Assembly: GCA_963816185.1 (NCBI GenBank)
Contig: CAWFJJ010000004.1
Span: 1-15,145 of the forward strand
DNA length: 15,145 nt
Reading direction: 5' to 3'
Source of the DNA: Thermoanaerobaculia bacterium
GTDB lineage: Bacteria; Acidobacteriota; Thermoanaerobaculia; UBA5066
Numbering within the stretch: position 1 is the stretch's first letter; the number at the start of each line of letters is the position of its first letter. A model generated the notes under the pieces. That model was not told where the DNA came from. It saw nothing but the letters and a program-made list of their open reading frames with translations, and made no database searches. The position numbers and the translations under genes are program-made. Positions 1,816 through 15,145 of this stretch are shown one piece after another.

Positions 1816-2970
1816 ATGGCGGAGCATGCGGACGTCGCGATCATCGGCGCCGGAGTCATCGGCTGCAGCGTCGCGTTCCACCTCGCGCATCTCGGCCGGC
1901 GTGGCGTCTTTTTGATCGAGAAGGAGCCGTTGCCTGGCTCGGGCTCGACGTCGAAGGCGAACGGCGGCATCCGGGCCCAGTTCACGACGGAGATCAACGT
2001 CGCGATGTCCCTCGCCTCGATGGCCATCCTCGACTCTCTCGCGGACGAGATCGGCGACCCGCCGCTCTACAGGAAGGCCGGCTACCTCTTCCTCACGGGC
2101 GACCCGGCGCGGCTCTCCGCGATGAAGGCCGCCGCCGCGTTCCAGCGCGCGCACGGCGTCAGCGTCGAGGTCCTCGACGCGGCGGGCGTGCGGGCGCTGG
2201 CGCCCTACGCGGCCGGGCCGATCCTGGGCGGCACTTTCGGCTCGCGCGACGGATTCATCGATCCGGGCGGCCTGACGAATTTCTTCCTGCGCGAGGCGAC
2301 ACGGGGCGGCGTCACGGTGCGCTACGGCGCCGGGGTGACGGCGGTCGAGAGGGAGTCCTCCGGGCCGTTCTGTCTCCGCACGGACGCCGGCGAGATCCGT
2401 GCTTCCGTCGTGGTCGACGCAGCAGGACCTTTCTCGGGCCGCGTCGCGGCGCTCTTCGGGGTGAGTCTTCCCGTCGTGCCCGTCCGCCGGCACATCCTCA
2501 TAAGCGGGCCTTGCCCCACGCTCCCGCAGGTGATCCCCATGACGATCGACGTGGACAGCGGCATCCTCATCCGCCGCGAGGGAAACCGGATCCTGATCGC
2601 GTACTCGAACCCCGACGAGCCCGCCGGCTTCAACACCGCCTTCGACCCCGACTTCCCGCTCCGCATCGCCGAGCCCTTGGACGCGCGTTTCCCCGCGGTC
2701 GGTGAAGCGGGCCTCGACCTCAAGCGGAGCTGGGCCGGGCTCTACGAAGTGACGCCGGACCACCACGCCGTCATCGGCCCCGTTCCGGACGTGCCGGGCT
2801 TTTTCGTCGTCTCAGGCTTCTCCGGCCACGGGGTCATGCACGCGCCGGCGGCGGGCCGGGCGGTCGCCGAGATGATCGTCAATGGGCGGAGCGAAAGCGT
2901 GGATGTCGAGGCGCTGTCCCTCGAGCGGTTCGCCCGCGGCGAGGCGATCCACGAAACGATGGTCCTCTGA
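1816..2970 (+). CDS. FAD-dependent oxidoreductase, DAO/DadA family (sarcosine oxidase beta / glycine oxidase-like)
   Basis: N-terminal Rossmann motif IIGAGVIG, then GSTSKANGGIR, VVDAAGPFS, WAGLYEVTPDHHAVIG and GFSGHGVMHAPAAG. Confidence 0.92.
   Translation: MAEHADVAIIGAGVIGCSVAFHLAHLGRRGVFLIEKEPLPGSGSTSKANGGIRAQFTTEINVAMSLASMAILDSLADEIGDPPLYRKAGYLFLTGDPARLSAMKAAAAFQRAHGVSVEVLDAAGVRALAPYAAGPILGGTFGSRDGFIDPGGLTNFFLREATRGGVTVRYGAGVTAVERESSGPFCLRTDAGEIRASVVVDAAGPFSGRVAALFGVSLPVVPVRRHILISGPCPTLPQVIPMTIDVDSGILIRREGNRILIAYSNPDEPAGFNTAFDPDFPLRIAEPLDARFPAVGEAGLDLKRSWAGLYEVTPDHHAVIGPVPDVPGFFVVSGFSGHGVMHAPAAGRAVAEMIVNGRSESVDVEALSLERFARGEAIHETMVL
2911..2970 (+). repeat. Direct repeat copy 1 (last 60 bp of the DAO-family gene)
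   Basis: 56/60 nt identical to 6196-6255. Confidence 0.95.
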
Positions 2971-3018
2971 CCGAATCGCTTCGAAAACCGCCGCGCGGAT
3001 ATCATTCCACGCGGGAAC

Positions 3019-6000
3019 ATGGAATCGGGGTCAGACAGCCCGGACGTCGGGAAACGCCTCCGGGAGCGGGGAGAGCGTGTTCAGGCGGCGGCCTTCCGAA
3101 TCGCCGAAGCCGTCGCAGCGACCGAGAGCCTGAAGGAGCTGTTCTCGAGGATCCACTCGATCGTGAGCGGGCTGATGGAGGCCGCCAATCTCTACATCGC
3201 CCTGCACGACCCGGACCGCGACATCCTCAGCTTTCCGTACTTCGTCGACGAGGTGGACGAGCCGTTTCCGCCGAAGCCTCTCGGCAAGGGCCTGACGGAG
3301 TACGTCCTCCGGACGGGCCGGCCTCTTCTCGCCTCTCCCGCCGTCTTCGAGGAGCTCGTCGCTTCCGGCGAGGTCGAGCCCATCGGGAGCGCCTCGATTG
3401 ACTGGCTCGGCGTCCCGTTGCGCGGCCGCGACCGGACCATCGGCGTCCTGGTGGTTCAGAGCTACTCGGGCAAAGTCCGCTACACCGAGGACGATCGCGA
3501 CCTCCTCGTCTTCGTCTCCTCCCAGATCGCCCAGACCATCGAGAGGAAGCGCTCCGAAGAGGCCCTCCGCGAGAGCGAGCTGAAGCTCCGGTCGACCGTC
3601 GCGGATCTGAAGCGCTTGACCGACAACATGGTCGACGTGATCAGCCAGGTGGACCTCGGAGGGCGGTTCCAGTTCGTCAGTCCGTCGCACGAGGTCGTGA
3701 CGGGCTGGACACCGGGAGAGCTTCTCGGCGCGAACGCTCTCGACCTCGTCCACCCCGACGACCGACAGATGATCCGCGCCAAGCTGCAGCGCGGGGCGGT
3801 GACCGGGAAATCCGGAGTCGCTGAGTACCGGTACCGGGTTCGGGACGGAAGGTACATCTGGGTCGAGACCGTTTCGAACGTCCTGCACGGTCCCGACGGA
3901 AAGCCGCAGGCCTACGTCCTCGGGTCCCGCGACGTGACCGCTCGCAAGAGGGCCGAGGCGGTCCTGGCGGTCCTCCACGAGACGGAGAGAAAGATCCTTC
4001 GGCGCGAGCCGATCGAACGGATCCTGCAGTTCATTTGTGACGAGGTGGCCGGCCGATTCGAGTTCGCCGTCGTGTGGATCGGCACCAAGGAGCCCGATGG
4101 GTCCATCAGCCAGCGGGCCGTCGCAGGATCGGCCGGGGCCTTCGTCAGACAGAGCAGCTTCCGGTGGGACGGCGTGCCCGAAGGGCAGGGTCCGAGCGGG
4201 GAGGCCATCCGCACAGGCCGGCCGGTGGTCATCACGACGAAGGCGGACGAGAGAGTCGCGGCCTGGAAACACCGCGTCGAGACGTTCCATCTCGGCTCGG
4301 CTCTGTCGATTCCGCTCGTCGTCGGGGAGTCCGTGCTCGGCGTCCTCTCGAGCTACTCGGACCGCGCGCACTCCTACGGCGAGGAGACGACCCGCCTTCT
4401 CACGCGTTTCGCCGACCAGGCGGCGCTCGCCCTCGTCGAAGCGCGTCAGCACGACCGGATCGAGCTGCAGACCGCGGCGCTCGAGGCGGCGGCCAACGCG
4501 GTCGTCATCACGGACCGCGAGGGCCTGATCGAGTGGGTGAACCCCGCCTTCACGGAGCTCACCGGATGGCAGAGGGAAGAGGTCATCGGGAAGACCCCGC
4601 GAATCCTGAAGTCCGAAATCCAGGCCCCCTACTATTACGAGAAGCTCTGGGAGACGATCCTGGCGGGGGACGTCTGGCGGGGCGAGCTTCACAACCGGCG
4701 CAAGGACGGCTCGGTCTACGTCGAGGAGCAGACCATCACCCCGGTCCGATCGGCGGACGGAGAGATTCGCAACTTCATCTCGATCAAGCAGGACGTCACG
4801 GCCCGAAGGCAGAGCGAGGAGCGGATCAGGCACCTCGCCTTGCACGACCCGCTCACGGACCTCTCCAACCGCCACGCGTTCGAAGAGTCTCTGGCGCGAA
4901 CGGTGTCCCGGGCGCTCCGCGGATCGCCGTCGTCGCTTCTCCTCCTCGACCTCGACAACTTCAAGATCGTCAACGATGCGCTCGGACACCCGGCCGGCGA
5001 CCGGGTCCTGGTCGAGGTGGCCCGCCTCATCGTGACGCTCGTGCGCCCCGGCGATGAGGTCGCCCGGTTCGGCGGCGACGAGTTCGCCGTCCTGCTCGAA
5101 GGGGTGGCGCTGGAAGGAGCCCGGATCACGGCGGAGCGGCTCAGGCAATCCGTCGATGAGCATCGGTTCTACGTCGGCGACCGTGCTTTCGACCTCGGGG
5201 TCAGCGTCGGGGTGGTCCCGGTGGACGGGACCGCGGACGCCTCGTCCCTGATGGCCGTGGCGGACACGGCGCTCTACGCCGCCAAGGAGAGGGGCCGCAA
5301 CCGGGTGATGGTCGTCGAAAGCGCGGCGAGCAGCTCCTCTCCGCTCTCCGAAGCGAGCCGCTGGGCGTCGCGGATCAAGGAGGCGCTCCGGGAGAATCGT
5401 TTCGTCCTCCACTACCAGCCGATCTTCCATTTCAAGTCGGGGCGTGCCGCACACTTCGAGGCGCTCATCCGCCTCAGGGAGGGACCGGACGAGCTCATCG
5501 CGCCGGCGGTCTTCCTCCCGGCGGCGGAGAGGTTCGGACTGATGCCCCACGTGGATCGCTGGGTCGTGGACCGCGTCATCGAGGTCCTGATCAGCCGTCC
5601 CGCCGTGGAGATCTTCGTCAACCTCTCGGGCACGAGCCTGGGCGACGAGTCTCTGCTCGCGTACATCGAGGAGCGCGTGACCTCGACCGGACTCCCGCCC
5701 GGACGACTGGCCTTCGAGATCACCGAGACGGCGGCGGTGAGAGATATCGTCGTCGCTCGCGAATGGATGCGCCGGGTGAAGGACCGCGGGTGCCGGTTCG
5801 CGCTCGACGATTTTGGAATCGGGTTCTCGTCTTTCTCCTACCTCCAAAGCCTGCCGGCCGATTACGTGAAGATCGACGGTTCGTTCATTCGAGGAATCGA
5901 CACCGATCAGGCCGCCCGTGCGCTCGTGCGTGCGATCGATACCGTGGCTCACACCCTGGGAAAAGAGACGATCGCCGAGTGCGTGGAGAGTCTGGATTCC

Positions 6001-6135
6001 GTGAGGACTCTCGTGGAGCTCGGCGTCGAGTACGGCCAGGGCTACGCGCTGGGCATGCCGGCCGAGGAGCTCTCGCTGCGCAGCGCGCCGGCCTTCCCGC
6101 CGCCGAAGGTCAAGCGGGCGACGGAAGGCGGCTGA
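3019..6135 (+). CDS. Hybrid diguanylate cyclase/phosphodiesterase (GAF-PAS-GAF-PAS-GGDEF-EAL)
   Basis: HDPLTDLSNR, intact RFGGDEF with an I-site RxxD (RPGD) five residues upstream. EAL motifs FEALIR, EITET, DDFGIGFSS, KID and YGQGY. Two GAF and two PAS/PAC segments lie N-terminally. No TM helices evident. Confidence 0.95.
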   Translation: MESGSDSPDVGKRLRERGERVQAAAFRIAEAVAATESLKELFSRIHSIVSGLMEAANLYIALHDPDRDILSFPYFVDEVDEPFPPKPLGKGLTEYVLRTGRPLLASPAVFEELVASGEVEPIGSASIDWLGVPLRGRDRTIGVLVVQSYSGKVRYTEDDRDLLVFVSSQIAQTIERKRSEEALRESELKLRSTVADLKRLTDNMVDVISQVDLGGRFQFVSPSHEVVTGWTPGELLGANALDLVHPDDRQMIRAKLQRGAVTGKSGVAEYRYRVRDGRYIWVETVSNVLHGPDGKPQAYVLGSRDVTARKRAEAVLAVLHETERKILRREPIERILQFICDEVAGRFEFAVVWIGTKEPDGSISQRAVAGSAGAFVRQSSFRWDGVPEGQGPSGEAIRTGRPVVITTKADERVAAWKHRVETFHLGSALSIPLVVGESVLGVLSSYSDRAHSYGEETTRLLTRFADQAALALVEARQHDRIELQTAALEAAANAVVITDREGLIEWVNPAFTELTGWQREEVIGKTPRILKSEIQAPYYYEKLWETILAGDVWRGELHNRRKDGSVYVEEQTITPVRSADGEIRNFISIKQDVTARRQSEERIRHLALHDPLTDLSNRHAFEESLARTVSRALRGSPSSLLLLDLDNFKIVNDALGHPAGDRVLVEVARLIVTLVRPGDEVARFGGDEFAVLLEGVALEGARITAERLRQSVDEHRFYVGDRAFDLGVSVGVVPVDGTADASSLMAVADTALYAAKERGRNRVMVVESAASSSSPLSEASRWASRIKEALRENRFVLHYQPIFHFKSGRAAHFEALIRLREGPDELIAPAVFLPAAERFGLMPHVDRWVVDRVIEVLISRPAVEIFVNLSGTSLGDESLLAYIEERVTSTGLPPGRLAFEITETAAVRDIVVAREWMRRVKDRGCRFALDDFGIGFSSFSYLQSLPADYVKIDGSFIRGIDTDQAARALVRAIDTVAHTLGKETIAECVESLDSVRTLVELGVEYGQGYALGMPAEELSLRSAPAFPPPKVKRATEGG

Positions 6136-6145
6136 CGGGAGGCGC

Positions 6146-6184
6146 GTGTGGAAAGACCGCATCGCCGTGATCGCCGGAGACGGA
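6146..6184 (+). pseudogene. Short 5' remnant of a tartrate/isopropylmalate dehydrogenase-family gene
   Basis: GGGAGG SD-like sequence and GTG, then RIAVIAGDG. Positions 6158-6184 are 24/27 nt identical to 9512-9538 (RIAVIPGDG). Confidence 0.65.
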
Positions 6185-6195
6185 TCTTCCTCGGC

Positions 6196-6255
6196 GCGCT
6201 GTCTCTCGAGCGGTTCGCCCGCGGCGAGGCGATCCACGAGACGATGGTTCTTTGA
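6196..6255 (+). repeat. Direct repeat copy 2: orphan duplicate of the DAO gene 3' end (ALSLERFARGEAIHETMVL*)
   Basis: Four differences from 2911-2970, all synonymous third-position changes (TCC/TCT, GAA/GAG, GTC/GTT, CTC/CTT). The match ends exactly at the TGA. Confidence 0.95.
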
Positions 6256-6259
6256 ACGT

Positions 6260-6316
6260 TCACTTGAGCCCTTCCGCCAGGTAGAGGTCGAAGAGGGAGC
6301 GCGCGTGGATGAATCG
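6260..6316 (-). pseudogene. Orphan C-terminal remnant (RFIHARSLFDLYLAEGLK*) resembling the end of kinase-beta-propeller proteins
   Basis: Lies immediately after the kinase stop in a different frame, has no start codon and uses mostly GC-ending codons. It resembles the 'RxLSDLYLVEGLK*' terminus I recall from acidobacterial Ser/Thr kinases with PD40/WD40 propellers (from memory, not searched). Confidence 0.55.
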
Positions 6317-6318
6317 TC

Positions 6319-8913
6319 TCAGCTCAATCCAACGCGCCGGCGCATCTGAGCGATCATCTCCTGGAGATGGGCTTCGATCCGCTGGAAGCGCGGGTCGCTT
6401 CGCAACGAATCGAGGAGCGGGCTCCGCGTGCCGAGGGGCCAGCCGCGCCAGCCGCCGTCAACGGCCTTGTCGAGCCAGCGGAAGGCCTCGTCCTTATCTC
6501 CGCGCAAGGCGTGCACGCAGGCCGTGTCGTACGGCACGCTCCAGTCCTCGTTGCCTTCGTCGTCGGCCCGGCGGTCCGTCGCGAGGGCCTCTTCGAGGAG
6601 CGCCTCGGCTTCACCGCGCCGCCCGGTTCGAAGGAGGAGATACGCGAGATTCGTCTCGGCCCCCGCTCCGGCATTCCGGAGTCCTTGTCGTATCCCTCGG
6701 AAGGACGGGAGAACCTGCTCGAAGAGCTGGCGCGCGCGCGGCAAGTTGCCGGTCACAAGCTCCGTGATAGCTGTGGCGTTAAACACCGTGGGGTCGTTTG
6801 GAACAAGGGTTACGGCGGTGCGGGCTAGCTGCAGGGCTTCCTCGTCGCGGCGCTGCTGAAGGTAGAAGTAGATCAGGAAGAGTCTTCCCTGGCCGAGGCC
6901 GGGCTGGAGCTCCAGGCTTCGTTTCAGCCAGCGCTCGGCCTGCCTCGCATCGCCCAGCGCCGCATACACGCTGCCGACGCCGGCGGACCCGACGGCGCTG
7001 GCGGGGTCGAGCTCAAATCCCCGGAGGATCCAGGGGAGGGCCTCGTCCAGCCTTCCCAGGTGCCTGAGCACATTACCGACGTTGACTACGGCACTCGCGT
7101 AATTCGGGTTGATCTCGGCGGCTCTCCTGGTCGCGTCCAGCGATTCCCGGTATTTCCCCTTTACGTTGTAAACGAGCCCGAGCGCTTTATACCCCTCGGC
7201 AAGGTCCGAATTGAGAGCGATCGCCTTTCGGCTTACTTCCAGGCTCGTGTCCAGCCAGGATTGCGGGAACCCGAAGCGGTTGACCCGTTGCGCGTAGGCG
7301 TCTCCCAGCCCCGCGTAAGCGAGCGCGAATGAGGGGTCCAACTCCAGCGCCTTCAGGAAGAGCTCGATCGCGGTTTCGTTGTCGGCCTTGCGGTAGTGGC
7401 TGTAGAGCTCCCGGCCCTTCAGATACAGATCGTATGCGGCGAGGTTCCATGTCGGGCTCTGCTCGATCCGCTTCTTCTCCGCCGGGGAGAGAGTCGCCTC
7501 GAGGGCCGCGGCAATCCGCTGAGCGACCTCGCTCTGGATCGCGAAGACGTCCTTGAGCTCGCGGTCGTAGGTCTCTGCCCAGAGCTGCTCGTCGCTTCTG
7601 GCATCGATGAGCTGGCCCACGATCCGGACCCGATTGCCGTCCCGCCGCACACTCCCTTCGAGGACCGTGGCGACGCCGAGCTCCGAGGCAATCGTCTGGA
7701 TCGGTTTCTGAGTCCCCTTGTAGCGCATCACGGAAGTGTGCGAGATGACCTTCACATCACGGATCTTCGCGAGCTGCGTCAGGATGTCCTCGGTCATGCC
7801 GTCAGCAAAGAAGGCGTTCTCGGGATCGGGGCTCAGGTTCTGGAACGGGAGCACGGCGATAGACTTGCGGTCGAGCGCGGAAGCGCGCGGCGCGCCGGTC
7901 TTCCCGCCACGTGTCCGCCAGAGGAGCACGGCCACGAGGACGAGGAGCGCCGCCGCGACGACTCCCCCGAAACCGAGCGCCATTCGCCGGCGCCACGCGG
8001 GCTTGCGCCGGATGGTCCGCGCCCCCGAGGCGGCCGGCGAGACATCCGAAAGGGCCTCGAGGTCGAAGGCGAGATCGTGCGCCGAGTGGAACCGCTGCTC
8101 CGGATTCTTCTCGATGCAGTGCCTCACGATTCGCTCGAGACCGGGCGAGATGCTCTGATTCGTGACGGAAAGATCGGGCGGTTCTTCCCGGAGGATCGCT
8201 GACATCGTCTCGGCCGGCGAGTCGCCGCGGAACGCTCTCTGGCCCGAGAGCATCTCGTAGAGGACGGCACCGAAGGAGAAGATGTCCGACCGGCCGTCCG
8301 CCGGCTTGCCCTTCAGCTGCTCGGGTGACACGTAGCCGAGCGTGCCCATCACGACGCCGGGCTCCGTGCCCGCCGAGGCCGTCGGCAGGTTGGTCGCCGG
8401 GGCGCCCTCTTCCTGATGTGTCAGCTTCGCCAGGCCGAAGTCGAGGATCTTGAGACGGCCGTCTCTGGTGATGAAGAGGTTCTCGGGCTTCAGGTCGCGG
8501 TGCACGATCCCCTTCTCGTGCGCCGCGGCCAGGCCGTGCGCGATCTGCAAGCCAAAGTCGATCGCTTTCTTCGGCGTCAGCTTCCCGCCCGCGAGCGCCG
8601 AGCGCAGCGTCTCGCCTTCGAGGAGCTCCATGACGAGGAGGTGGCGGGACGAGGAAGGAGAAGAACCGGGGCTTTCTTCGAATGAATAGATAGCCGCGAG
8701 ATTCGGATGGTTCAGCGAGGCCAGCAGCTTCGCCTCCCGTTCGAATCTCTGCCTCCTCTCTTCACCTTCAAAGAACTCTTCCGGCAGCACCTTGATCGCG
8801 ACCTCTCTCGCGAGACGCGGGTCTCTCGCCCGGTAGACCTCGCCCATCCCGCCCGCACCGATCGGCGCGACGATCACGTAAGGGCCCAACCGCGTACCGG
8901 GAGCAAGACTCAT
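6319..8913 (-). CDS. Hanks-type Ser/Thr protein kinase with a TM segment, TolB-like domain and TPR repeats
   Basis: Kinase motifs GAGGMGEV, VAIK, HRDLKPEN, DFG, GTLGYVSPEQ and DIFSFG. Hydrophobic stretch ALGFGGVVAAALLVLVAVLLW. SIAVLPFQN...DGMTEDILTQL TolB-like domain, multiple TPRs (e.g. KALELDPSFALAYAGLG) and a C-terminal LRSDPRF motif. Confidence 0.95.
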   Translation of the reverse strand: MSLAPGTRLGPYVIVAPIGAGGMGEVYRARDPRLAREVAIKVLPEEFFEGEERRQRFEREAKLLASLNHPNLAAIYSFEESPGSSPSSSRHLLVMELLEGETLRSALAGGKLTPKKAIDFGLQIAHGLAAAHEKGIVHRDLKPENLFITRDGRLKILDFGLAKLTHQEEGAPATNLPTASAGTEPGVVMGTLGYVSPEQLKGKPADGRSDIFSFGAVLYEMLSGQRAFRGDSPAETMSAILREEPPDLSVTNQSISPGLERIVRHCIEKNPEQRFHSAHDLAFDLEALSDVSPAASGARTIRRKPAWRRRMALGFGGVVAAALLVLVAVLLWRTRGGKTGAPRASALDRKSIAVLPFQNLSPDPENAFFADGMTEDILTQLAKIRDVKVISHTSVMRYKGTQKPIQTIASELGVATVLEGSVRRDGNRVRIVGQLIDARSDEQLWAETYDRELKDVFAIQSEVAQRIAAALEATLSPAEKKRIEQSPTWNLAAYDLYLKGRELYSHYRKADNETAIELFLKALELDPSFALAYAGLGDAYAQRVNRFGFPQSWLDTSLEVSRKAIALNSDLAEGYKALGLVYNVKGKYRESLDATRRAAEINPNYASAVVNVGNVLRHLGRLDEALPWILRGFELDPASAVGSAGVGSVYAALGDARQAERWLKRSLELQPGLGQGRLFLIYFYLQQRRDEEALQLARTAVTLVPNDPTVFNATAITELVTGNLPRARQLFEQVLPSFRGIRQGLRNAGAGAETNLAYLLLRTGRRGEAEALLEEALATDRRADDEGNEDWSVPYDTACVHALRGDKDEAFRWLDKAVDGGWRGWPLGTRSPLLDSLRSDPRFQRIEAHLQEMIAQMRRRVGLS

Positions 8914-9016
8914 CGATTGAACTCGGGCGGAATGCTCGTGGATTGCGCCGGGGATTATGGGCGGTCGAGCATCGCGGAGCGAGATTCCGCGGCGCCGAGC
9001 GAGCGGCCTCGGTCAG

Positions 9017-9046
9017 TTGACACCGGAGCGGCTTCTCGGATCTGAT
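9017..9046 (+). promoter_or_regulatory. Putative sigma70-type promoter, possibly giving a leaderless CBS-gene transcript
   Basis: Perfect TTGACA (9017-9022), 18-nt spacer and a weak -10 TCTGAT (9041-9046). The ATG is 6 nt downstream and has no SD. Confidence 0.4.
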
Positions 9047-9052
9047 TCCTCA

Positions 9053-9490
9053 ATGGCGACCGCGAAGGACCTCCTGGCGTTGAAGAAGTCCCGCGAGGTC
9101 ATCACCGTCCCACCGGGCGCGTCCGTGCGGGACGCGTGCCGGCTCATGCGGGACCGCCGGATCGGCGCCGTGCTGGTCTCGGAGGGGGAGACGCTCCACG
9201 GAATCTTCACCGAACGCGACGTCGTGAACCTCGTCGTCGCGGGGGAGAAGGACCCCGCTCTCACGGTGGTCGCCAAGGTGATGACGCAGAAGGTCATGGT
9301 GGTGCAATCCGACCGCTCGGTCGAGGATATCGAGGCGATCATGCGGCAGGAGCGGGTGCGTCACGTCCCCGTGGTGGACGGGAAGACTCTCATCGGGATG
9401 ATCTCGATCGGGGACGTCAACGCCTACAACGCGGCCGAGGACCATCAGAACGTCGAATACCTGACCCAGTACATCCACGGCCGGGCCTGA
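9053..9490 (+). CDS. Stand-alone CBS-pair (Bateman domain) protein, 145 aa
   Basis: Start at MATAKDLL. Motifs IGAVLV, GIFTERDV, VAKVMT, VRHVPVVD and GMISIGDV, and the family-typical terminus YLTQYIHG. Confidence 0.9.
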   Translation: MATAKDLLALKKSREVITVPPGASVRDACRLMRDRRIGAVLVSEGETLHGIFTERDVVNLVVAGEKDPALTVVAKVMTQKVMVVQSDRSVEDIEAIMRQERVRHVPVVDGKTLIGMISIGDVNAYNAAEDHQNVEYLTQYIHGRA

Positions 9491-9499
9491 CGACGCCGC

Positions 9500-9611
9500 G
9501 TGAACTCCTGTCGCATTGCCGTGATTCCCGGAGACGGAATCGGCCAAGGAGGTCGTCCCGGAGGGGATTCGCGTGCTCGACGCGGCCGGCGCGGTCGCCG
9601 GGGCGGTCTGA
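9500..9611 (+). pseudogene. Truncated, frameshifted 5' fragment of a tartrate/D-malate dehydrogenase (DmlA/TtuC-type) gene
   Basis: Reads MNSCRIAVIPGDGIG; removing one extra C (9544/9545) continues KEVVPEGIRVLDAAGAVAGAV* (TGA 9609-9611). This matches the DmlA-type N-terminus RIAxIPGDGIGKEVxPEGIRVL. Confidence 0.85.
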
Positions 9612-9655
9612 TCCGCCTCGCGCTAGGATTGGAGCAAAGCGGAGGAGGATCAATC

Positions 9656-10573
9656 GTGAGAAAAGCTCTCCGGATCGTTCAGATTCCCGCCCTGACGTTC
9701 GCCGCTCTTGCGCTCGCGAGCTGCGCGTGGAAGAAGGACCTCGACCAGGTCAAGGCCGAGAACAAGACCCTCACCGAGGAAAAGCAGCGCTCCCAGAGGG
9801 AGCTCGGCGCGGCCGGCGCGGCGACCGCCGAGATGCAGTCCACGCTCGACGAGGTGCAGAGGAGCCTCGAGGACCTGCGCGTCAAGGAGCTCAAGGCCGT
9901 CAAGACCTCGATCGCCGTCGCCCAGGAAGGGAAGACCGCCACCGCGCAGAAGCGCGAAGAGCTGAAGACGGAGATCGAGGAGATCCGCAGCGCCGTCAAG
10001 GCGAACCTCGCAAAGCTCGAGGCCCTGCAGAAGCAGAAACGGGCCTCGGACGTGAAGGCGACGACGCTCGAGCGCCTCGTCGGCGAGCTGCGTGCCTCCC
10101 TCGAGGAGAAGGAAGCTACGATCGCCGCGCTCGAGCAGAGGACGCAGGAGCTGACGAAGACGACGGAAGAGCTGAAGAGCACCGTGAAGGAGAAAGAGGC
10201 GGTCGTGCAGGAGAAGGAGGCCGCCATCGCGGACCGCGAGACGCAGTTGTCGACCGCCTACATTCTCATCGCGACGCAGAAAGAGCTGAAGAAGGCCGGC
10301 CTCGTCGAGAAGAAGGGCTCCGTGCTCGGCCTCGGAGGAAACTGGCAGAGGACCGGCCAGTTCGACGAGACGCTCTTCAAGCAGATCGACACGCGCAAGG
10401 ACACGGAGTTCGCCGTCGCCGCCGCCAAGGACAAGGCGCGGGTCCTCTCGGATCACCCGAAGGACAGCTACACGCTCTCGGCGGTGGGCCCGAAGGCGAG
10501 CACCCTGACCGTGACCGACGCGGCGCGCTTCTGGAAGGGCAGCAAGTACCTCGTCGTCATGCTCCCGGACTGA
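9656..10573 (+). CDS. Coiled-coil lipoprotein, Cbp1 (collagen-binding adhesin)-like, 305 aa
   Basis: Strong SD GGAGGAGG before GTG 9656, signal peptide with lipobox LASC, and a long heptad-rich region. The C-terminal domain AYILIATQKELKKAGL...FKQIDTR...HPKDSY...FWKGSKYLVV resembles the Bacteroidota Cbp1 family (recalled, not searched). Confidence 0.75.
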   Translation: MRKALRIVQIPALTFAALALASCAWKKDLDQVKAENKTLTEEKQRSQRELGAAGAATAEMQSTLDEVQRSLEDLRVKELKAVKTSIAVAQEGKTATAQKREELKTEIEEIRSAVKANLAKLEALQKQKRASDVKATTLERLVGELRASLEEKEATIAALEQRTQELTKTTEELKSTVKEKEAVVQEKEAAIADRETQLSTAYILIATQKELKKAGLVEKKGSVLGLGGNWQRTGQFDETLFKQIDTRKDTEFAVAAAKDKARVLSDHPKDSYTLSAVGPKASTLTVTDAARFWKGSKYLVVMLPD

Positions 10574-10607: not shown

Positions 10608-11165
10608 TCAGGGTTTCGCGGCAAAGAAGGAGTAACGGGCCCGGTAGGGGACGCGGGCCTCCTTGCCCGATTGCGCCTTGTCGCAACCCTCGGCAGGGGC
10701 CTTCCCGCCGACGGTGGACAACCGCTGAATGCTGAGGATCCGGCCGAAAACGCCTTTCCCGGACGTGGACTTCGCGCTCAGCAGCAGCCACGGAATGGCG
10801 TTCGCGTCCGATCCGCCATCTTTGGCCACGACTTCGCCGACCACCTTGCTTCCGTCAAAGGATTCCCAGGTCGGACCCGCGTAGTGCTTGCCGATCTTCT
10901 TGCCCTTACCATCCCAGAGATCGGCCTCAGGAGCCTTGAAGACCCATTCGAACCGCGCCGGATCGGCCTTGCTGGCGCTGCACGTGTAGATCTGCACGCC
11001 GGCGGCATGCGCCTCGAGCGCCAACGTCTGGGTCGCGGGAACTTTGAGACTCTCGGGAACTGCGGAAGCCGTTCCCGTTTCGGGGGAGGCGTACGCGCCA
11101 GACGCGCAGCTTCCGACGGCCATCAGGAGGACCAGGAAGGCGGGACGCGGCGGAGTGACGAGCAT
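10608..11165 (-). CDS. Exported DUF3455 domain protein
   Basis: Motifs GVQIYTC, WVFKAPEADL, IGKHYAGPTWE, IPWLLL, IQRLSTVGGKAP and VPYRARYSF. Hydrophobic N-terminus ending in VGSC (possible lipoprotein). SD GAGGTG and a -10-like TAAAAT (11183-11188) lie upstream. Confidence 0.85.
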   Translation of the reverse strand: MLVTPPRPAFLVLLMAVGSCASGAYASPETGTASAVPESLKVPATQTLALEAHAAGVQIYTCSASKADPARFEWVFKAPEADLWDGKGKKIGKHYAGPTWESFDGSKVVGEVVAKDGGSDANAIPWLLLSAKSTSGKGVFGRILSIQRLSTVGGKAPAEGCDKAQSGKEARVPYRARYSFFAAKP

Positions 11166-11226
11166 GCCTGCACCTCGGCACGATTTTAGCCCGAGGTTTC
11201 CCCGGCCCTTTCCCGCTCTCTTCCGA

Positions 11227-12717
11227 TCAGAGCTCGTCGAACGCGCGCTCGATGCGCTTGCAGATGGTCTTGAGCACCTTGACGCGCGCGAATTTCTTGT
11301 CGTTCGCTTCCACGAGCGTCCAGGGGGCGCTGCCCGTCGACGTGCGCTCGATCATGTCGGCGGCGGCCGACTGGTAGAGGTCCCATTTCCCGCGGTTGCG
11401 CCAGTCTTCGGGCGTGATCTTGAAGCGTTTGAAGCGCATACGCTCGCGCTCCTTGAAGCGCCGGAGCTGCTCCTCGCGTGAGATCTGCAGCCAGAACTTG
11501 CACACCACGATGCTCGAGCGCTCGAGCTGCTCCTCGAAATCGTTGATCTCCGCGTAGGCGCGCATCCAGTCGGCCTCCGCGCAGAACCCCTCGATGCGCT
11601 CGACGAGCACGCGCCCGTACCAGGTGCGGTCGTAGATCGTGACCCGGCCTTTGCGCGGCAGGTGGCGCCAGAAGCGCCACAGATAGGGCTGAGCGCGCTC
11701 CTCGTCGCTGGGCGCGGCCACCGGGATCACGTTGTAGTGGCGCGCATCGAGGCCGGCGGTGACACGGCGAATCGTGCTCCCCTTGCCCGCCGCGTCCATG
11801 CCCTCGAACGCCAGCGCGACCGAGAGCCGCGGAAACTTCGCGTCGCGCGCGAGACGGTTGAGGCGCCCCTGCCAAGCCGAGAGCTCGGTCTTGTACGTCT
11901 TTTCGGTGAGGCCCCTGGACAGATCGAGCTCGCTCAGCACGTCCCGCCTGTCGATCGGGCGGACGATCGGCGCCGTCTTCGAAACCTCTCGAGCGCGCTC
12001 GGCCGGAGCGTCGAGGCGCTTCTTCATCGCTCCGAGCAGCGCCTTGCCGACCGTGAGGGAGCGGTACGGCGGGTCCGCGCCCTCGACCACGATCCACGGC
12101 GCGTCCGCCGTGCTGGTCGCTCGTAGCGTTTCCCCGGAGATCCGGTAGAAGCGGTCGTATCTCTTGAAGAAGTCCCAGTCGCGTTTGGTCACGCGCCAGC
12201 GCGTCTCGGGATCGGACGCGAGGGCCTTCAGACGTCTTCTCTGCGCCTCCCTGGACAGGTGAAACCAGAACTTGAGGATCAGCGCGCCCTCGTCGGCGAG
12301 CATCCTCTCGAACCGGTTGATCTCCTCGATCGACTGCAGCAGGTCGGAGCGGCCGGTGTTCCGGAAGACGCGGTCGATGATCGGCGCCGTGTACCAGGAC
12401 CCGAACAGGATGCCGATCTTTCCCTTCGGCGGCAGGGCGCGCCAATAGCGCCACATCGGCGGCCGGTCGCGCTCCTCGTCTGAAGGGGTGTCGAAGGCGT
12501 GCGTGAGGATGTGGCGCGGGTCCATCCACTCGTTGAGGACGTTGACGGTCTCGCCCTTGCCCGCCCCGCGCACCCCGGAGATCAGGATGATCAGCGGGAA
12601 CGTCCCGTTCTCTTTCAGGCGGTATTGGGCGTCCAGCAAGTCGGACCGCAGCTTCGGCACGGCGCGATGAAAGACGGTCTTCGCGACGGTATGACCAAGC
12701 TCCGCGGTTTCGAACAC
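11227..12717 (-). CDS. pap: Polyphosphate:AMP phosphotransferase (two-domain class II PPK2)
   Basis: Two PPK2 domains. The N-domain has GVRGAGKG and a degenerate Walker B (FGSWY); the C-domain has EGMDAAGKG, YDRTWYGRVL and FKITPEDWRNR. Start GTG 12717 (MFETAELGH) fits an SD GAGGG; GTG 12723 is an alternative. Confidence 0.93.
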   Translation of the reverse strand: MFETAELGHTVAKTVFHRAVPKLRSDLLDAQYRLKENGTFPLIILISGVRGAGKGETVNVLNEWMDPRHILTHAFDTPSDEERDRPPMWRYWRALPPKGKIGILFGSWYTAPIIDRVFRNTGRSDLLQSIEEINRFERMLADEGALILKFWFHLSREAQRRRLKALASDPETRWRVTKRDWDFFKRYDRFYRISGETLRATSTADAPWIVVEGADPPYRSLTVGKALLGAMKKRLDAPAERAREVSKTAPIVRPIDRRDVLSELDLSRGLTEKTYKTELSAWQGRLNRLARDAKFPRLSVALAFEGMDAAGKGSTIRRVTAGLDARHYNVIPVAAPSDEERAQPYLWRFWRHLPRKGRVTIYDRTWYGRVLVERIEGFCAEADWMRAYAEINDFEEQLERSSIVVCKFWLQISREEQLRRFKERERMRFKRFKITPEDWRNRGKWDLYQSAAADMIERTSTGSAPWTLVEANDKKFARVKVLKTICKRIERAFDEL

Positions 12718-12898
12718 GCGCACCCCTCAGCGCATCGCTTCTATTAGACCCAGTCTACTCGCGAGCGCGATGGCAGCTTCAGCCGGCCTGCACGGTTTCG
12801 TGCGCGGGCCTACCCCATGTGGTTTCCGAAGAGCACCCGAGGAGGCGCCCCGACGTGCCATCGGGTTGCAGGCCAACGCGATCGGCTGTTCCGCGCCG

Positions 12899-13286: not shown

Positions 13287-14663
13287 TCAGCGGGCCAGCG
13301 GAGCGAAGCGCGCCGTGAAGTGGCGGAGCATGCGCGGGGCCTCGGTGATGCGGTAGCCCGTGATCTTCGACGCGTTCTTTGCGACCTCGAGGACGGCCTC
13401 GGCCACGTAATCCACGTGAGACTGCGTGTAGACGCGGCGCGGGAAGGCGAGGCGCACGAGATCCATCGGGCCGGGCTGCTCGGTGCCGTCTCTCTTCAGC
13501 CCGAACATGACCGTCCCGATCTCGACGCCGCGCACGCCCGCGACCTCGTAAAGCGCGTTTACGAGCGCGATGCCCGGGTACTGGAGCGGCGGGATGTGCG
13601 GGAGCAGCGCGCGTGCGTCGAGGTACACCGCATGCCCGCCGGGCGGACGGATCATCGGCACGCGGGCCGATTCCAGCTTCTCGGCGAGGTACTCGATCGA
13701 GCGGATGCGGTATTGCAGGTACGGCTCTTCGACGACCTCCTCGAGGCCGCGCGCGATCGCCTCGAGGTCGTAGCCGGCGAGGCCGCCGTACGTCGGGAAC
13801 CCCTCCGTGAGGATGAGAAGGTTGCGCGCTTTCTCGGCCCAGGCGTCGTCGTTCATCGCGAGGAAGCCGCCGATGTTCGCAAGCCCGTCCTTCTTCGCCG
13901 ACATCGTGCAGCCGTCGGCCAGGGAGAACATCTCCTGCGCGATCTCCTTCGGGGTCCGGCCGTCCTGCCCCTTCTCACGGCGCTTGACGAGGTACGCGTT
14001 CTCGGCGAAGCGGCAGGCGTCGAGGAAGAAGGGCTTGTCGAACCGGTCGCAGAGCGCGCGCACGCCGTGGAGGTTCTCGAGCGACACGGGCTGGCCGCCC
14101 CCGGAGTTGTTCGTGACGGTGACCATGACGAGCGGAACGCGGCCGCCGTCCTTCGCGAGCGTCTCCTCGAGGGCTCCGAGATCGACGTTGCCCTTGAACG
14201 GGTGGAGGAGACTCGGGACGCGTCCTTCCGCAATGACGAGGTCGCGCGCCTCGGCGCCTTCGACCTCCACGTTCGCGCGCGTCGTGTCGAAGTGGTTGTT
14301 ATTCGGGACGACGTCGCCCTCGTGAAGGATCGTGTGGAAGAGGATGCGCTCCGCGGCGCGCCCCTGATGCGTCGGAATGACGTGCTTGAACCCCGTCAGC
14401 TCCTGCACGGCGTCGCGAAACCGGTAATACGAGCGGCTGCCCGCATACGACTCGTCGCCCTGCATGAGCGCGCCCCACTGCGCGGCCGACATCGCGCCCG
14501 TGCCGGAGTCCGTCAGGAGGTCGATGAGGACGTCCTCGGCACGGAGGAGGAAGACGTTGTATCCGGCCTCGGCGATGGCCTTTTGCCGCTCCTCGACGGT
14601 CGTCGTCTTGATCGTCTCGACGGATTTGATCCGGAAGGGCTCGATGATCGTGCGGAATTCCAC
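13287..14663 (-). CDS. tnaA: Tryptophanase (tryptophan indole-lyase), 458 aa
   Basis: Start GTG 14663 (MEFRTIIEPFRIKSVE). Motifs DLLTDSGT, GDESYAGS, HQGRAAE, the PLP lysine in MSAKKDG, and GGHAVY. Residues VEIG and RHFTARF are the tryptophanase type; tyrosine phenol-lyase has ERG and RFFTARF. Confidence 0.9.
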   Translation of the reverse strand: MEFRTIIEPFRIKSVETIKTTTVEERQKAIAEAGYNVFLLRAEDVLIDLLTDSGTGAMSAAQWGALMQGDESYAGSRSYYRFRDAVQELTGFKHVIPTHQGRAAERILFHTILHEGDVVPNNNHFDTTRANVEVEGAEARDLVIAEGRVPSLLHPFKGNVDLGALEETLAKDGGRVPLVMVTVTNNSGGGQPVSLENLHGVRALCDRFDKPFFLDACRFAENAYLVKRREKGQDGRTPKEIAQEMFSLADGCTMSAKKDGLANIGGFLAMNDDAWAEKARNLLILTEGFPTYGGLAGYDLEAIARGLEEVVEEPYLQYRIRSIEYLAEKLESARVPMIRPPGGHAVYLDARALLPHIPPLQYPGIALVNALYEVAGVRGVEIGTVMFGLKRDGTEQPGPMDLVRLAFPRRVYTQSHVDYVAEAVLEVAKNASKITGYRITEAPRMLRHFTARFAPLAR

Positions 14664-14671
14664 GAGAGGCG

Positions 14672-14680
14672 AGGATAGCA
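14672..14680 (-). promoter_or_regulatory. Extended -10 element of a probable leaderless tnaA promoter
   Basis: TGCTATCCT (TGnTAnnnT) lies 8 nt upstream of the GTG. There is no SD in the 23-bp gap. Confidence 0.55.
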
Positions 14681-14686
14681 GCGGGT

Positions 14687-15145
14687 TCAGGCCGGAGTGA
14701 GTCCGACCACCCGGCCGTCCACGAGGTCGATGCGCTCGGCTGCGGGGATGGCCGGAAGGCCCGGCATCCTGATCATGTCTCCGAGCAGCGGTACGAGGTA
14801 GCCCGCGCCGGCCGCGAGGACGACGCCCCGCACGGTGATGTCGAAGTCCTCCGGGCGCCCCAGGAGCTTCGGGTCGTCCGACAGCGACTTCTGCGTTTTC
14901 GCGACACAGAGCGGGAGGTCGCCGTATCCGAACGCGACCGCTCGCGCGAGGTCCGCGTCCGCCTCGCGAGTCCAGACGACGTCGCTCGCGCCGTACATGG
15001 CGCGGGCGATCTTCGACATCTTCTCCTTTGGGGGATCGGTTCTGTCGTAGAGCGGCCGGAACCGGCTGCCGGGCCCTTCCGCCTGCGCCACGACGGCGTC
15101 GGCGAGCTCGATGCCCCCCTCTCCGCCGCACGCGAAGACGTCCGA
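14687..15145 (-). CDS. fhs: Formate--tetrahydrofolate ligase, C-terminal part (runs off the window edge)
   Basis: Motifs VFACGGEGGIELA, KIARAMYGA, LPLCVAKTQKSLSDDP, AGAGYLV and MPGLPAIPAAERID. The frame is open to 15145. Confidence 0.93.
   Translation of the reverse strand, partial: SDVFACGGEGGIELADAVVAQAEGPGSRFRPLYDRTDPPKEKMSKIARAMYGASDVVWTREADADLARAVAFGYGDLPLCVAKTQKSLSDDPKLLGRPEDFDITVRGVVLAAGAGYLVPLLGDMIRMPGLPAIPAAERIDLVDGRVVGLTPA

Follow-up and report, generated by a model that had tools for sequence, protein, structure and literature searches.

Two alleles of a hypervariable gene islet lie head to tail on a contig of an uncultured soil bacterium, probably through additive merging

Results

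Layout of the locus

The window, i.e. the whole stretch of DNA analysed (15,145 nt), is an entire 15-kb contig, C4, from an uncultured soil bacterium. C4 represents a strain variant of another contig in its MAG, C29, which carries a simple allele in which a DAO-family oxidoreductase gene (DAO), a c-di-GMP enzyme gene (DGC) and a tartrate dehydrogenase gene (tdh) follow one another. The MAG mixes two strains, and most of its small contigs are 90-99% variants of segments of the large ones. C4 itself aligns collinearly with C29:261040-271601, and identity between the two falls from 99-100% at the contig ends to 80-92% nearing the joint described below, as expected of old alleles within freely recombining flanks. 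The features of the window are as follows.

1816-2970, plus strand: FAD-dependent oxidoreductase (DAO family), intact, 384 aa (Pfam PF01266, E 7e-68); conserved upstream border of the slot
2971-6135, plus strand: module 1 cargo, DAO-DGC spacer and DGC gene (93.9% nt identity to C29:264043-267247)
3019-6135, plus strand: DGC, a PAS/GAF-GGDEF-EAL c-di-GMP enzyme of 1038 aa (Pfam EAL 8e-67, GGDEF 2e-44, GAF, PAS)
6146-6184, plus strand: tdh', remnant comprising the first 39 nt of tdh, DGC-linked allele type
6185-6190, no strand: filler TCTTCC at the apparent illegitimate joint, matching neither tdh nor DAO in alignments
6191-6255, plus strand: DAO', remnant of a DAO 3' end (final 65 nt, stop codon included), in a different reading frame from tdh'
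6259-6313, minus strand: 3'-end remnant (~55 nt) of a PD40-type Ser/Thr kinase gene, recognized by alignment between DAO' and the stop of the TPR-type kinase
6319-8913, minus strand: Ser/Thr protein kinase with C-terminal TPR region, 864 aa (Pfam Pkinase 4e-51 and TPR families)
8957-9490, plus strand: CBS-pair protein gene (Pfam CBS 2e-24), conserved part from near 9014
9500-9611, plus strand: tdh'', remnant comprising tdh nt 1 to about 94 and the final 18 nt with stop
9656-10573, plus strand: lipoprotein gene of the coiled-coil Cbp1 family (NCBIfam NF052320, 158.9 bits, cut-off 90; 93% identical in nt to C29)
10608-12723, minus strand: second indel relative to C29, absent from this place there; further variable islet content (Pfam and NCBIfam)
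10608-11165, minus strand: DUF3455 gene, also in L064
11227-12723, minus strand: polyphosphate:AMP phosphotransferase (PPK2) gene; PPK2 also in L080
13287-15143, minus strand: tryptophanase-like beta-eliminating lyase gene (Pfam PF01212, 5e-75; NF009709, 667 bits)

A preliminary description, made from the window alone, had seen two stacked modules with gene fragments at their borders, and this layout is borne out: a copy of the DAO 3' end and two tdh start fragments frame the modules, and the repeats were verified both against shuffles and against C29. The direct repeat 2906-2973/6191-6258 covers 68 nt at 90% identity, its first copy being the final 65 nt of DAO (2906-2970), and scores 92.4 bits in blastn, a value reached by none of 100 dinucleotide-preserving shuffles of the window (maximum 35.6 bits). 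The tdh repeat (6158-6184/9512-9538; 27 nt, 89%, 36.5 bits) taken alone lies barely above the shuffle maximum; we nevertheless accept it because 6151-6184 independently matches the start of the C29 tdh region (97%, E 2e-9) and occupies the same position after the DGC stop. That no recombinase is in view also holds for the 18 large ORFs of the window, among which a Pfam scan found no integrase, transposase or recombinase; tRNA genes and Rfam families were likewise not found in the window. The similar context 'TGACG...CGCGTG' once seen before both dehydrogenase fragments is no conserved site, as the spacer differs in C29, where ATG directly follows TGA, and in the relative G007 as well.

Each module carries the marks of one allele type

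Allele-specific bases place module 1 with the DGC type and module 2 with the kinase-CBS type, in agreement with the earlier proposal that two alternative alleles stand in tandem. The tdh' remnant has the ATCGCC variant, as have C29 and G007, where the sequence runs on into a full Iso_dh gene, and it is placed after the DGC stop exactly like tdh in these two. The tdh'' remnant has the ATTCCC variant of G003 and, as in G003, follows the CBS stop. Previously described as a longer tdh 5' fragment, tdh'' does hold the 5' part, but the 3' end is also present, which makes it an internal-deletion derivative with its fusion point in a 3-nt match (9591-9593) and one extra base near 9545.

The left end of module 2 points in the same direction. 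DAO' is identical at 62 of 65 positions to the DAO ends of L059, L060, L063, L066 and L067, compared with only 59 of 65 for C4's own DAO end, and it continues into a kinase 3' end as in G003, G043, L061 and L063, which supports the allele assignment. The PD40-kinase remnant is convergent and adjoins the DAO stop at the position seen in those four relatives; C4 6191-6313 matches G003 at 88%, and L061 and L063 match 6191-6301 at 91-94%. A kinase and a CBS gene had been correctly recognized as the contents of module 2, except that the kinase gene is encoded on the minus strand, with this PD40-type remnant between its stop and DAO'. The kinase domain is orthologous to that of G003, with a TPR part (6314-8047) in place of the PD40 part: C4 8048-9593 matches G003 at 84%, 6314-8047 has no match there, and among 29 genus genomes the TPR part finds at best a relative with 40% aa identity. 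CBS orthologues adjoin tdh in G003, and DGC in G009, G043 and L099. The nearest relatives of module 2 are thus mixed (the L06x clade for DAO', G003 at 84% for the kinase domain, G009/G043 at 90-95% for CBS) and no single donor was found, which may indicate that the join is old or that the alleles are themselves mosaics.

The slot in relatives

The interval from DAO to tdh, the coiled-coil gene and the lyase gene is a recombinase-free hypervariable islet of the genus with rapid turnover, and it holds different whole genes, chiefly signalling genes, in different lineages. Its borders are conserved: 23 of the 24 genus genomes sampled have a DAO orthologue (72-96% aa identity), the coiled-coil gene is the regular downstream neighbour of tdh (G003, G007, L078 and L080), and the lyase gene lies downstream of DAO in 17 of 20 genus loci and in many of 59 metagenome loci. 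Across the 29 genus genomes and 59 metagenome loci, at least 10 arrangements were found between DAO and the lyase gene. The postulated slot of DAO, variable cargo and tdh could be recovered in its separate states: DAO-DGC-tdh in C29 and G007; DAO-kinase-CBS-tdh followed by the coiled-coil gene in G003, with the kinase on the minus strand and tdh intact (TIGR02089, 567 bits); and DAO-tdh followed by the coiled-coil gene, free of cargo, in three metagenome contigs (L074, L078 and L080). In a 34-row DAO tree, cargo varies between rows separated by under 0.01 substitutions per site, as illustrated by near-identical rows with a deleted tdh (L060 and L062) or a kinase (L061 and L063). Together, survey and tree make the hotspot character of the slot real. 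The composite itself occurs in one of the 29 genus genomes, as C4 only, and in none of the 59 metagenome loci.

G043, where DAO is followed by a kinase, DGC and CBS, raises the question of whether a whole slot of this kind (DAO-kinase-DGC-CBS-tdh) was duplicated in tandem and then thinned by reciprocal gene loss. Duplicating the stretch from DAO -65 to tdh +39 would give the same joint; however, three more precise deletions would be needed, each recreating a known spacer (DAO-DGC, DGC-tdh and kinase-CBS), and the border copies are ~10% diverged with different lineage-specific bases. We disfavour this course of events as highly improbable.

The tree also places G003 (kinase-CBS-tdh) as sister to G007 (DGC-tdh; SH-aLRT 97), so that sister lineages hold both simple types. 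It could be argued that the composite came first and that the simple alleles are resolution products of C4-like intermediates, since homologous deletion between the 65-nt DAO ends would yield exactly the G003-type arrangement (DAO-kinase-CBS-tdh), and deletion between the 39-nt tdh starts that of C29 and G007 (DAO-DGC-tdh). Yet the composite itself requires prior DAO-kinase and DGC-tdh adjacencies and hence cannot be primary, the repeats are short and only about 90% identical, DAO and DGC are widely found adjacent, with no tdh, in less closely related species (11 of 20 loci), and no resolution products with the TPR-type kinase were found in the 29 genus genomes or 59 metagenome loci. Such a switch appears improbable to us.

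The joint and other orphan DAO ends

As judged from the alignments, the modules meet at a non-homologous joint that runs from tdh nt 39 through TCTTCC into the final 65 nt of DAO. The junction had been put at 11 nt; a junction is indeed there, but it measures 6 nt (6185-6190), since bases 6191-6195 (TCGGC) match relatives' DAO genes and not C4's own DAO.

It should be noted that C4, a minor-strain variant in a two-strain MAG, represents the setting in which misassembly is most likely, and this counts against a genuine merging. An assembler may have fused a strain having DAO-DGC-tdh with a co-occurring one having DAO-kinase-CBS-tdh, so that no cell would hold both modules; the collinearity with C29 and the uniqueness of the composite fit such an artefact. 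Against it, the partners share no sequence at the joint, and 6 nt there belong to neither of them, a pattern typical of illegitimate joining and unlike an assembler's strain switch at a shared k-mer. Moreover, one would hardly expect a random chimera to bring two strains together at one and the same locus, collinear and equally oriented; the MAG holds no separate DAO-kinase-CBS-tdh contig, nor a second copy of 6314-8040 or of the CBS gene; and in independent assemblies (G017:C160 and L116), too, an orphan DAO end adjoins foreign sequence. We therefore consider a chimera decidedly unlikely.

Orphan DAO 3' ends were found in 4 of 84 sequences probed, namely C4, G017:C160, L116 and L118. The DAO' of G017:C160, from another species, starts within 1 nt of that of C4 (shared start TCGGCGCGC...), despite different left partners (tdh' in C4, a CAAX-protease gene region in G017:C160) and different right partners (a kinase end and DGC, respectively). 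This coincidence is not predicted by a purely random join, and it favours the idea of an anchor; we estimate its chance at roughly 1-2% for random breakpoints within about 200 nt. The final ~65 nt of DAO might hence be an att-like docking site or a break/repair hotspot to which modules are repeatedly added, through a recombinase encoded elsewhere or sequence-directed repair, which equals the anchor proposed in the preliminary description. The three consecutive kinases after DAO in L066 would suit repeated addition, but no DAO' lies between them, and most arrangement changes in relatives have left no DAO'. Breakpoints also differ elsewhere, in DAO (about -120 in L116, about -100 in L118) and on the tdh side (39, 68 and 94 nt), where independent deletions with other breakpoints occur in L060/L062 (68|~60) as well as in L064, L061 and L063. 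At the joints there was no sign of a recombinase, of inverted repeats or of a conserved core, the cargo consists of ordinary chromosomal genes, and the remnants of C4 and G017 may have common ancestry. A docking site is thus unlikely in our view.

Discussion

We propose that two islet alleles, DAO-DGC-tdh and DAO-kinase-CBS-tdh, were probably merged additively by homology-assisted illegitimate recombination. Both allele types exist, and by its sequence each module corresponds to one of them. The rapid turnover of the islet also speaks for this reading, as do the comparable scars in relatives, namely the other orphan DAO ends and the independent tdh deletions. In a single imprecise event, DNA with one allele would have paired with the resident allele via the common flank on one side, while the opposite side would have been sealed through illegitimate end joining, so that the incoming cargo was added and not swapped in, leaving the two alleles head to tail. 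The process could be a Ku-type end join or homology-facilitated illegitimate recombination; genes for ComEC, DprA and two homologues of Ku are present in the genome. Homology-facilitated illegitimate recombination usually leaves clean microhomology joints, while that of C4 has filler. The dehydrogenase gene, dispensable in the clade, may later have been gutted by internal deletion and frameshift. We infer the one-sided homologous anchor, the enzymes, the direction (i.e. which allele was resident) and the status of the contig as a true molecule. Given a non-homologous joint with filler, the duplicated gene ends are best seen as by-products of one imprecise join, that is, as scars and not as proven anchors. 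The preliminary notion of housekeeping gene ends serving as recombination anchors of a cargo-accumulating device is not supported in that form by such a joint, nor by a composite confined to C4 in the genomes and loci surveyed.

Several known systems offer parallels. The primary papers on homology-facilitated illegitimate recombination are said to be those of de Vries and Wackernagel (2002), Prudhomme et al. (2002) and Meier and Wackernagel (2003). As summarized in later accounts, it is known from Acinetobacter, S. pneumoniae, P. stutzeri and E. coli conjugation (PMC5361080, PMC2884548, PMC3240628). C4 resembles the process so summarized in that new DNA would lie beside a homologous anchor with its far end joined without homology, and in an insertion whose borders are partly duplicated or deleted, in the absence of a dedicated recombinase. 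Unlike in those accounts, the C4 event is deduced from one natural product with 6 filler nt in place of clean microhomology, and the incoming DNA would be another allele of the locus that it entered, so that both borders are duplicated.

Minimal mobile elements (MME) of Neisseria were reportedly introduced by Saunders and Snyder (2002) and Snyder et al. (2007). According to the definition quoted in PMC3082526, they share with our islet a conserved gene pair, strain-variable whole-gene cassettes between, no recombinase of their own and exchange presumed to occur via the flanks. By the same definition, MME are cleanly replaced by homologous recombination, whereas the C4 cassettes are stacked with border scars, and C4 comes from an uncultured soil genus with signalling genes as cargo.

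Sequential displacement arrays, comprising orphan immunity genes and effector 3' ends of the Vibrio cholerae T6SS and orphan Rhs/CDI tips, are described in PMC5361080, whose authors invoke homology-facilitated illegitimate recombination and note the absent integrase. In these, as portrayed there, a module anchored in a conserved upstream gene likewise displaces the resident downstream and pieces of displaced genes are retained; in contrast to their many repeats and selection to keep immunity genes, C4 displays a single stacking event and no apparent toxin-immunity logic.

Finally, C4 recalls genomic islands in the 3' end of a gene, in which att duplication leaves an intact gene, inserted DNA and, as a short direct repeat, a second copy of the 3' end of that gene; here, these are DAO, the inserted module and DAO'. 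Unlike such islands, C4 has no integrase, its repeats are 90% identical with no sharp common core, the other border of the 'island' is a tdh start fragment, and DAO-DGC adjacency is the common chromosomal state among its relatives (11 of 20 loci). We regard the locus as a clear but ordinary case of the reshuffling of accessory genes in bacteria without a dedicated mobile element.

Structure of the composite locus

Self-comparison of the window by blastn indicated that the end of the gene for an FAD-dependent oxidoreductase (DAO) at 2906-2973 recurs at 6191-6258 with 90% identity. At 92.4 bits, compared with at most 35.6 bits for the best direct repeat in any of 100 dinucleotide-preserving shuffles of the window, the repeated DAO 3' end reported in the preliminary description is real. 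A repeat of the tartrate dehydrogenase gene (tdh; 6158-6184 versus 9512-9538, 89%, 36.5 bits) is by itself barely above chance; the tdh start behind the first module was nevertheless borne out by a 97% match of 6151-6184 to the start of the tdh region on C29, a contig of the same assembly, and by its position behind the stop of the c-di-GMP enzyme gene (DGC), exactly as tdh is placed in C29 and in the genus genome G007.

Genes of the two modules and the upstream border (Pfam)
1816-2970: DAO oxidoreductase
3019-6135: PAS/GAF-GGDEF-EAL enzyme (DGC)
6319-8913, minus strand: Ser/Thr kinase with TPR repeats
8957-9490: CBS-pair protein

Module 1, consisting of the DGC and a tdh remnant, closes with tdh nt 1-39 (6146-6184) in the ATCGCC variant of C29 and G007. 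Six bases unlike either partner of the joint, TCTTCC (6185-6190), separate it from module 2, which opens at 6191 with an orphan DAO end, the last 65 nt of the gene with the stop included, and continues with the kinase, the CBS gene and a second tdh remnant. The first five bases of the orphan end (TCGGC) differ from the DAO of the window itself, and for this reason the junction had been counted as 11 nt; they match the DAO genes of relatives and hence belong to the orphan end, which leaves a junction of 6 nt. The orphan end is identical at 62 of 65 positions to the DAO ends of five other loci (L059, L060, L063, L066 and L067), and at only 59 of 65 to the resident gene. Read from the sequence, it is out of frame with the tdh remnant, so that no fusion protein is expected. 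The joint thus runs from tdh nt 39 through TCTTCC to DAO position -65 with no extended homology across it; TCGGC is common to tdh nt 42-46 and DAO -65 to -61, yet is not used cleanly.

Directly after the orphan DAO end, about 55 nt (6259-6313) remain from the 3' end of a kinase gene of PD40 type, in the convergent position that the full gene occupies in the genus genomes G003 and G043 and in the loci L061 and L063. The kinase of the window is common to that of G003 only in the kinase domain (8048-8913, within a block of 84% identity), and its TPR part (6314-8047) stands in place of the PD40 part in G003. The sensor part of the kinase has accordingly been swapped, with TPR repeats in the window (6314-8047, minus strand) and a PD40/WD40-like propeller in G003 (L028) and G043 (L058), and the stub at 6259-6313 is what was left of the replaced gene's 3' end. 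TPR-kinase paralogues are very numerous in the genus, with up to 16 matches per genome. Module 2 closes with a tdh remnant that starts 9 nt past the CBS stop in the G003-type variant ATTCCC, carries one extra base near 9545 and at 9591-9593, where 3 nt match, passes into the terminal 18 nt of tdh, stop included.

When the DNA of 6100-6330 was compared with all 29 genus genomes, a full-length match was found only in the window, and DGC and kinase stood together after DAO in none of 59 metagenome loci. Module 2 was matched throughout by no sampled genome, G003 coming to 84-88%, and for its TPR part no relative above 40% amino acid identity was found in the 29 genomes; different parts of the module have different nearest relatives.

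The contig and its sister haplotype

The window is the whole of contig C4 (15,145 nt), which belongs to a 30-contig, 5.09-Mb MAG with 94.9% completeness and 3.4% contamination. Most of the small contigs of this MAG are variants, 90-99% identical, of stretches on its large contigs, indicating that fragments of another, closely related strain have been binned with the main genome. C4 and C29:261040-271601 are collinear, from which it follows that C29 holds the simple order DAO-DGC-tdh-coiled-coil gene.

Correspondence between C4 and C29
C4 3-2969: C29 261040-264006, 97.8% identity
C4 2970-6184: C29 264043-267247, 93.9% identity
C4 6185-9511: no C29 counterpart at the locus
C4 9512-9593: C29 267221-267301, 90% identity
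Missing from C4: C29 267302-268251, body of tdh
C4 9591-10579: C29 268252-269238, 93% identity
C4 10580-12785: none in C29, DUF3455 and PPK2 genes
C4 12786-15145: C29 269243-271601, 99.4% identity

Both flanks of the composite are homologous to the simple allele (97.8% upstream, 93-99% downstream), and identity between the two contigs falls from 99-100% at the contig ends to 80-92% on approaching the joint. As the bin mixes strains, a contig chimeric between the two is the main technical risk to the interpretation. The joint is, however, without sequence common to its partners, a chance join of the same locus from two strains in collinear order is improbable, and analogous junctions occur in independent assemblies, all of which argues against a chimera.

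C29 has peculiarities of its own. In the main strain the DAO stop (C29:264004-264043) reads TGC, and the open reading frame continues for 12 codons into a spacer before the DGC that is 37 nt longer. The tdh of C29 (267209-268273, the counterpart of 9500-9611 in the window) differs from four intact relatives by 12 single-base indels (10 insertions and 2 deletions), while the 1054-aa DGC frame and the coiled-coil gene beside it are both intact; these indels reflect either advanced decay into a pseudogene or a local fault of the consensus in a stretch that differs between the two strains. Presence/absence also separates the strains at a second place, C4 10580-12785 versus C29:269238-269243, where only C4 has a DUF3455 gene and a two-domain PPK2, the latter a polyphosphate:AMP phosphotransferase (739 bits, TIGR03708). 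DUF3455 occurs without PPK2 in L064 and PPK2 without DUF3455 in L080. The borders of these and other indels (10580 and 12786; 6313/6314; 8047/8048) showed no direct repeats and no common motif.

The DAO slot in relatives

We took about 15 kb around the DAO orthologue from 20 genus genomes and placed the window's proteins on each. In G003 (DAO 90% identical in amino acids) the order is DAO-kinase (minus strand)-CBS-tdh-coiled-coil gene, with an intact tdh that scores 567 bits on the TIGR02089 tartrate dehydrogenase model (cut-off 470). G007 has DAO-DGC-tdh-coiled-coil gene, its tdh being recognized by Iso_dh (E 9e-91) and carrying one frameshift near its start. Two further combinations were DAO-DGC-CBS-coiled-coil gene, without tdh, in G009 and DAO-kinase-cytochrome c-DGC-CBS in G043. 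The DGC lies immediately 3' of DAO in 11 of the 20 loci, and neither DGC nor kinase was present in 8, where DAO is about 72-75% identical. A search of metagenome contigs with the DAO protein added 59 loci; those without an arrangement listed here end early or are distant.

Arrangements after DAO in metagenome loci
L074, L078, L080: intact tdh, then coiled-coil gene
L060, L062: internally deleted tdh (68 nt fused to about 60 nt)
L064: coiled-coil gene, then DUF3455
L061, L063, L067, L066: kinase(s), three in L066
Ten loci: DGC

The orders in G003, in G007 and C29, and in L074, L078 and L080 show that both parental alleles and the empty site exist. The expectation that some relatives would carry DAO-DGC-tdh and others DAO-kinase-CBS-tdh was thus confirmed, the former by C29 and G007 and the latter by G003. 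In L061, L063 and L064 the 3' end of tdh remains in front of the coiled-coil gene, showing that tdh was formerly there too and has been lost several times. Pfam gave mostly no name to the 97 open reading frames between DAO and the lyase in relatives beyond Iso_dh, CBS, DUF5666, subtilase and a CHAT protein, and none to a gene of about 314 aa located 3' of the DGC in more distant species.

In L066 (2230-9982) three diverged Ser/Thr kinase genes follow one another between DAO and the coiled-coil gene, with kinase domains 64-77% identical in amino acids to that of the window. In two metagenome contigs (L072, 946-2561, and L114) a CBS-pair gene lies directly upstream, not downstream, of DAO, so that CBS has moved to both sides of DAO in the group.

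Orphan DAO ends in other genomes

With the last 150 nt of DAO as probe, a second or orphan DAO end was detected in four of 84 sequences (82 loci, C4 and the C29 region): C4, contig C160 of the genus genome G017, L116 and L118. The full DAO of G017 stops exactly at the end of contig C132; on C160, a CAAX-protease gene region is followed by the last 65-66 nt of DAO with a mutated stop, the usual DAO-DGC spacer and the DGC. This remnant starts within 1 nt of the one in C4, though the neighbours differ on both sides. In L116 a kinase start and a CBS-type spacer precede about 28 unmatched nt, after which come a DAO end of approximately 120 nt and the 3' end of another kinase, and in L118, from a more distant organism of 71% GC, a DAO 3' end of about 100 nt is intergenic (5100-5370). 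The latter directly follows an inverted repeat of CTGACCA-like units. The region upstream of the G017 remnant yielded only the CAAX (Rce1-like) protease match and a 62-nt repeat; this stretch (L057, the C160 locus, 898-959) adjoins the orphan DAO end at the start of the CAAX protease frame and is found four times on contig C12 of the MAG that contains C4 (near 9445, 23273, 23813 and 24014; 83-86% identity), and could be a repeat element or belong to a small family of repeated genes.

The coincidence within 1 nt of the C4 and G017 breakpoints could be taken to mean that the last 65 nt or so of DAO are a preferred docking point, independent of any recombinase, to which kinase, DGC and other signalling modules are added serially. 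If so, the locus would be an integron-like accumulator working through host repair alone, and the C4 and G017 breakpoints, the DAO end flanked by kinases in L116 and the row of three kinases in L066 would reflect one recurrent process. We regard this as quite improbable, and the proposal of an accumulating device anchored in gene ends was not supported: breakpoints elsewhere are scattered (DAO at -65, about -100 and about -120; tdh at 39, 68 and 94 nt), and there is neither a recombinase nor a core motif. The same probe found no orphan DAO end between the three kinases of L066.

Proposed origin of the composite

Two allele types of the slot exist, each module of C4 is of one type, the joint between them is non-homologous and contains filler, and the flanks are like the simple allele. 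The arrangements in relatives support the original suggestion of a tandem join between two alleles of a slot of the type DAO-[cargo]-tdh. On one flank, DNA with one allele may have paired with its resident counterpart, while the other flank was sealed illegitimately, so that the incoming cargo would have been added rather than exchanged. The lack of extended homology at the C4 joint is the non-homologous far-end join expected of homology-facilitated illegitimate recombination, a process which, in passages of PMC5361080 and PMC2884548, is said to be rare beside homologous recombination yet to exceed purely illegitimate joining in efficiency 100- to 100,000-fold, and which, according to a portion of PMC3240628, occurs also in E. 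coli conjugation. The genome encodes two Ku homologues, which could supply a filler-adding end join; Ku was matched in only one of 14 control genomes. Homologues of ComEC and DprA are also encoded, but both are near-universal, being found in 10 and 11, respectively, of the 14 control genomes. That short border copies alone survive is plausibly due to removal of longer direct repeats by homologous recombination; the RecA threshold in E. coli is quoted in a passage of PMC2884548 as about 30 bp.

Other origins fit less well. A simple tandem duplication was rejected, since the cargo is wholly different and the border copies are 89-90% identical with different lineage-specific bases; duplication followed by reciprocal loss would require three additional precise deletions and ranks low. 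A site-specific island likewise ranks low. For one borne by an integrase in a gene 3' end, the DAO repeat is present but an integrase is not, and the DGC is the usual chromosomal neighbour of DAO in relatives. An integron or site-specific cassette array was rejected because no integrase is among the 18 large open reading frames, boundaries are scattered and the other indel borders have no common motif. In agreement with the preliminary description, Pfam identified no integrase or transposase among the 18 large open reading frames of the window, and no tRNA gene or Rfam family was found in it. A promoter and terminator scan of 2800-9800 (no promoter-like and two terminator-like sites, against a shuffle mean of 3.3) was uninformative. 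That the composite acts as a switch, resolving into either simple allele through its own repeats, is compatible with the structures; the join would still be needed first, however, and no resolution products were seen. Joining of two alleles with one illegitimately sealed flank remains our preferred reading.

Place among variable chromosomal loci

The flanks of the islet, i.e. the variable interval from DAO to the tryptophanase-like lyase gene (13287-15143), recur in the majority of the 20 loci from the genus and in many of the 59 from metagenomes, with DAO upstream and the coiled-coil gene (9656-10573), o179 and the lyase downstream. Between them the clade has at least 10 arrangements: tdh, deleted tdh, DGC, DGC-tdh and DGC-CBS on the one hand, and kinase, three kinases, kinase-CBS-tdh, kinase-cytochrome c-DGC-CBS and coiled-coil gene-DUF3455 on the other. 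A maximum-likelihood phylogeny of 34 DAO genes places loci with different cargo at distances below 0.01 substitutions per site (deleted tdh in L060 and L062, kinase in L061 and L063), and in it G003 with kinase-CBS-tdh is sister to G007 with DGC-tdh (SH-aLRT 97). The cargo hence turns over far more quickly than the border gene diverges. It is accompanied by no recombinase, and its differences at such short distances suggest exchange by homologous recombination in the flanks; the stacking in C4 is itself no clean replacement.

Conserved flanks, different whole-gene cassettes and the lack of a recombinase place the locus with minimal mobile elements, as characterized in part of PMC3082526; it does not qualify as an integron or an integrase-borne island. 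In its stacking it is similar to sequential displacement arrays in the T6SS clusters of V. cholerae and in Rhs loci; for these arrays a section of PMC5361080 proposes homology-facilitated illegitimate recombination.

The C4 composite reveals no new genetic device, being a well-documented event of a known kind. Rather, it provides a legible natural case of accessory-gene gain, beyond swapping, at a chromosomal hotspot without mobile-element machinery, in an uncultured soil lineage for which the two parental alleles, the empty site and several decay products that arose independently can be compared. Given its c-di-GMP enzyme, its CBS protein and its Ser/Thr kinases, whose sensor domains have been swapped, the islet can be called a nursery of sensory and signalling genes, and it may be of interest for the study of the large kinase expansions in such bacteria.
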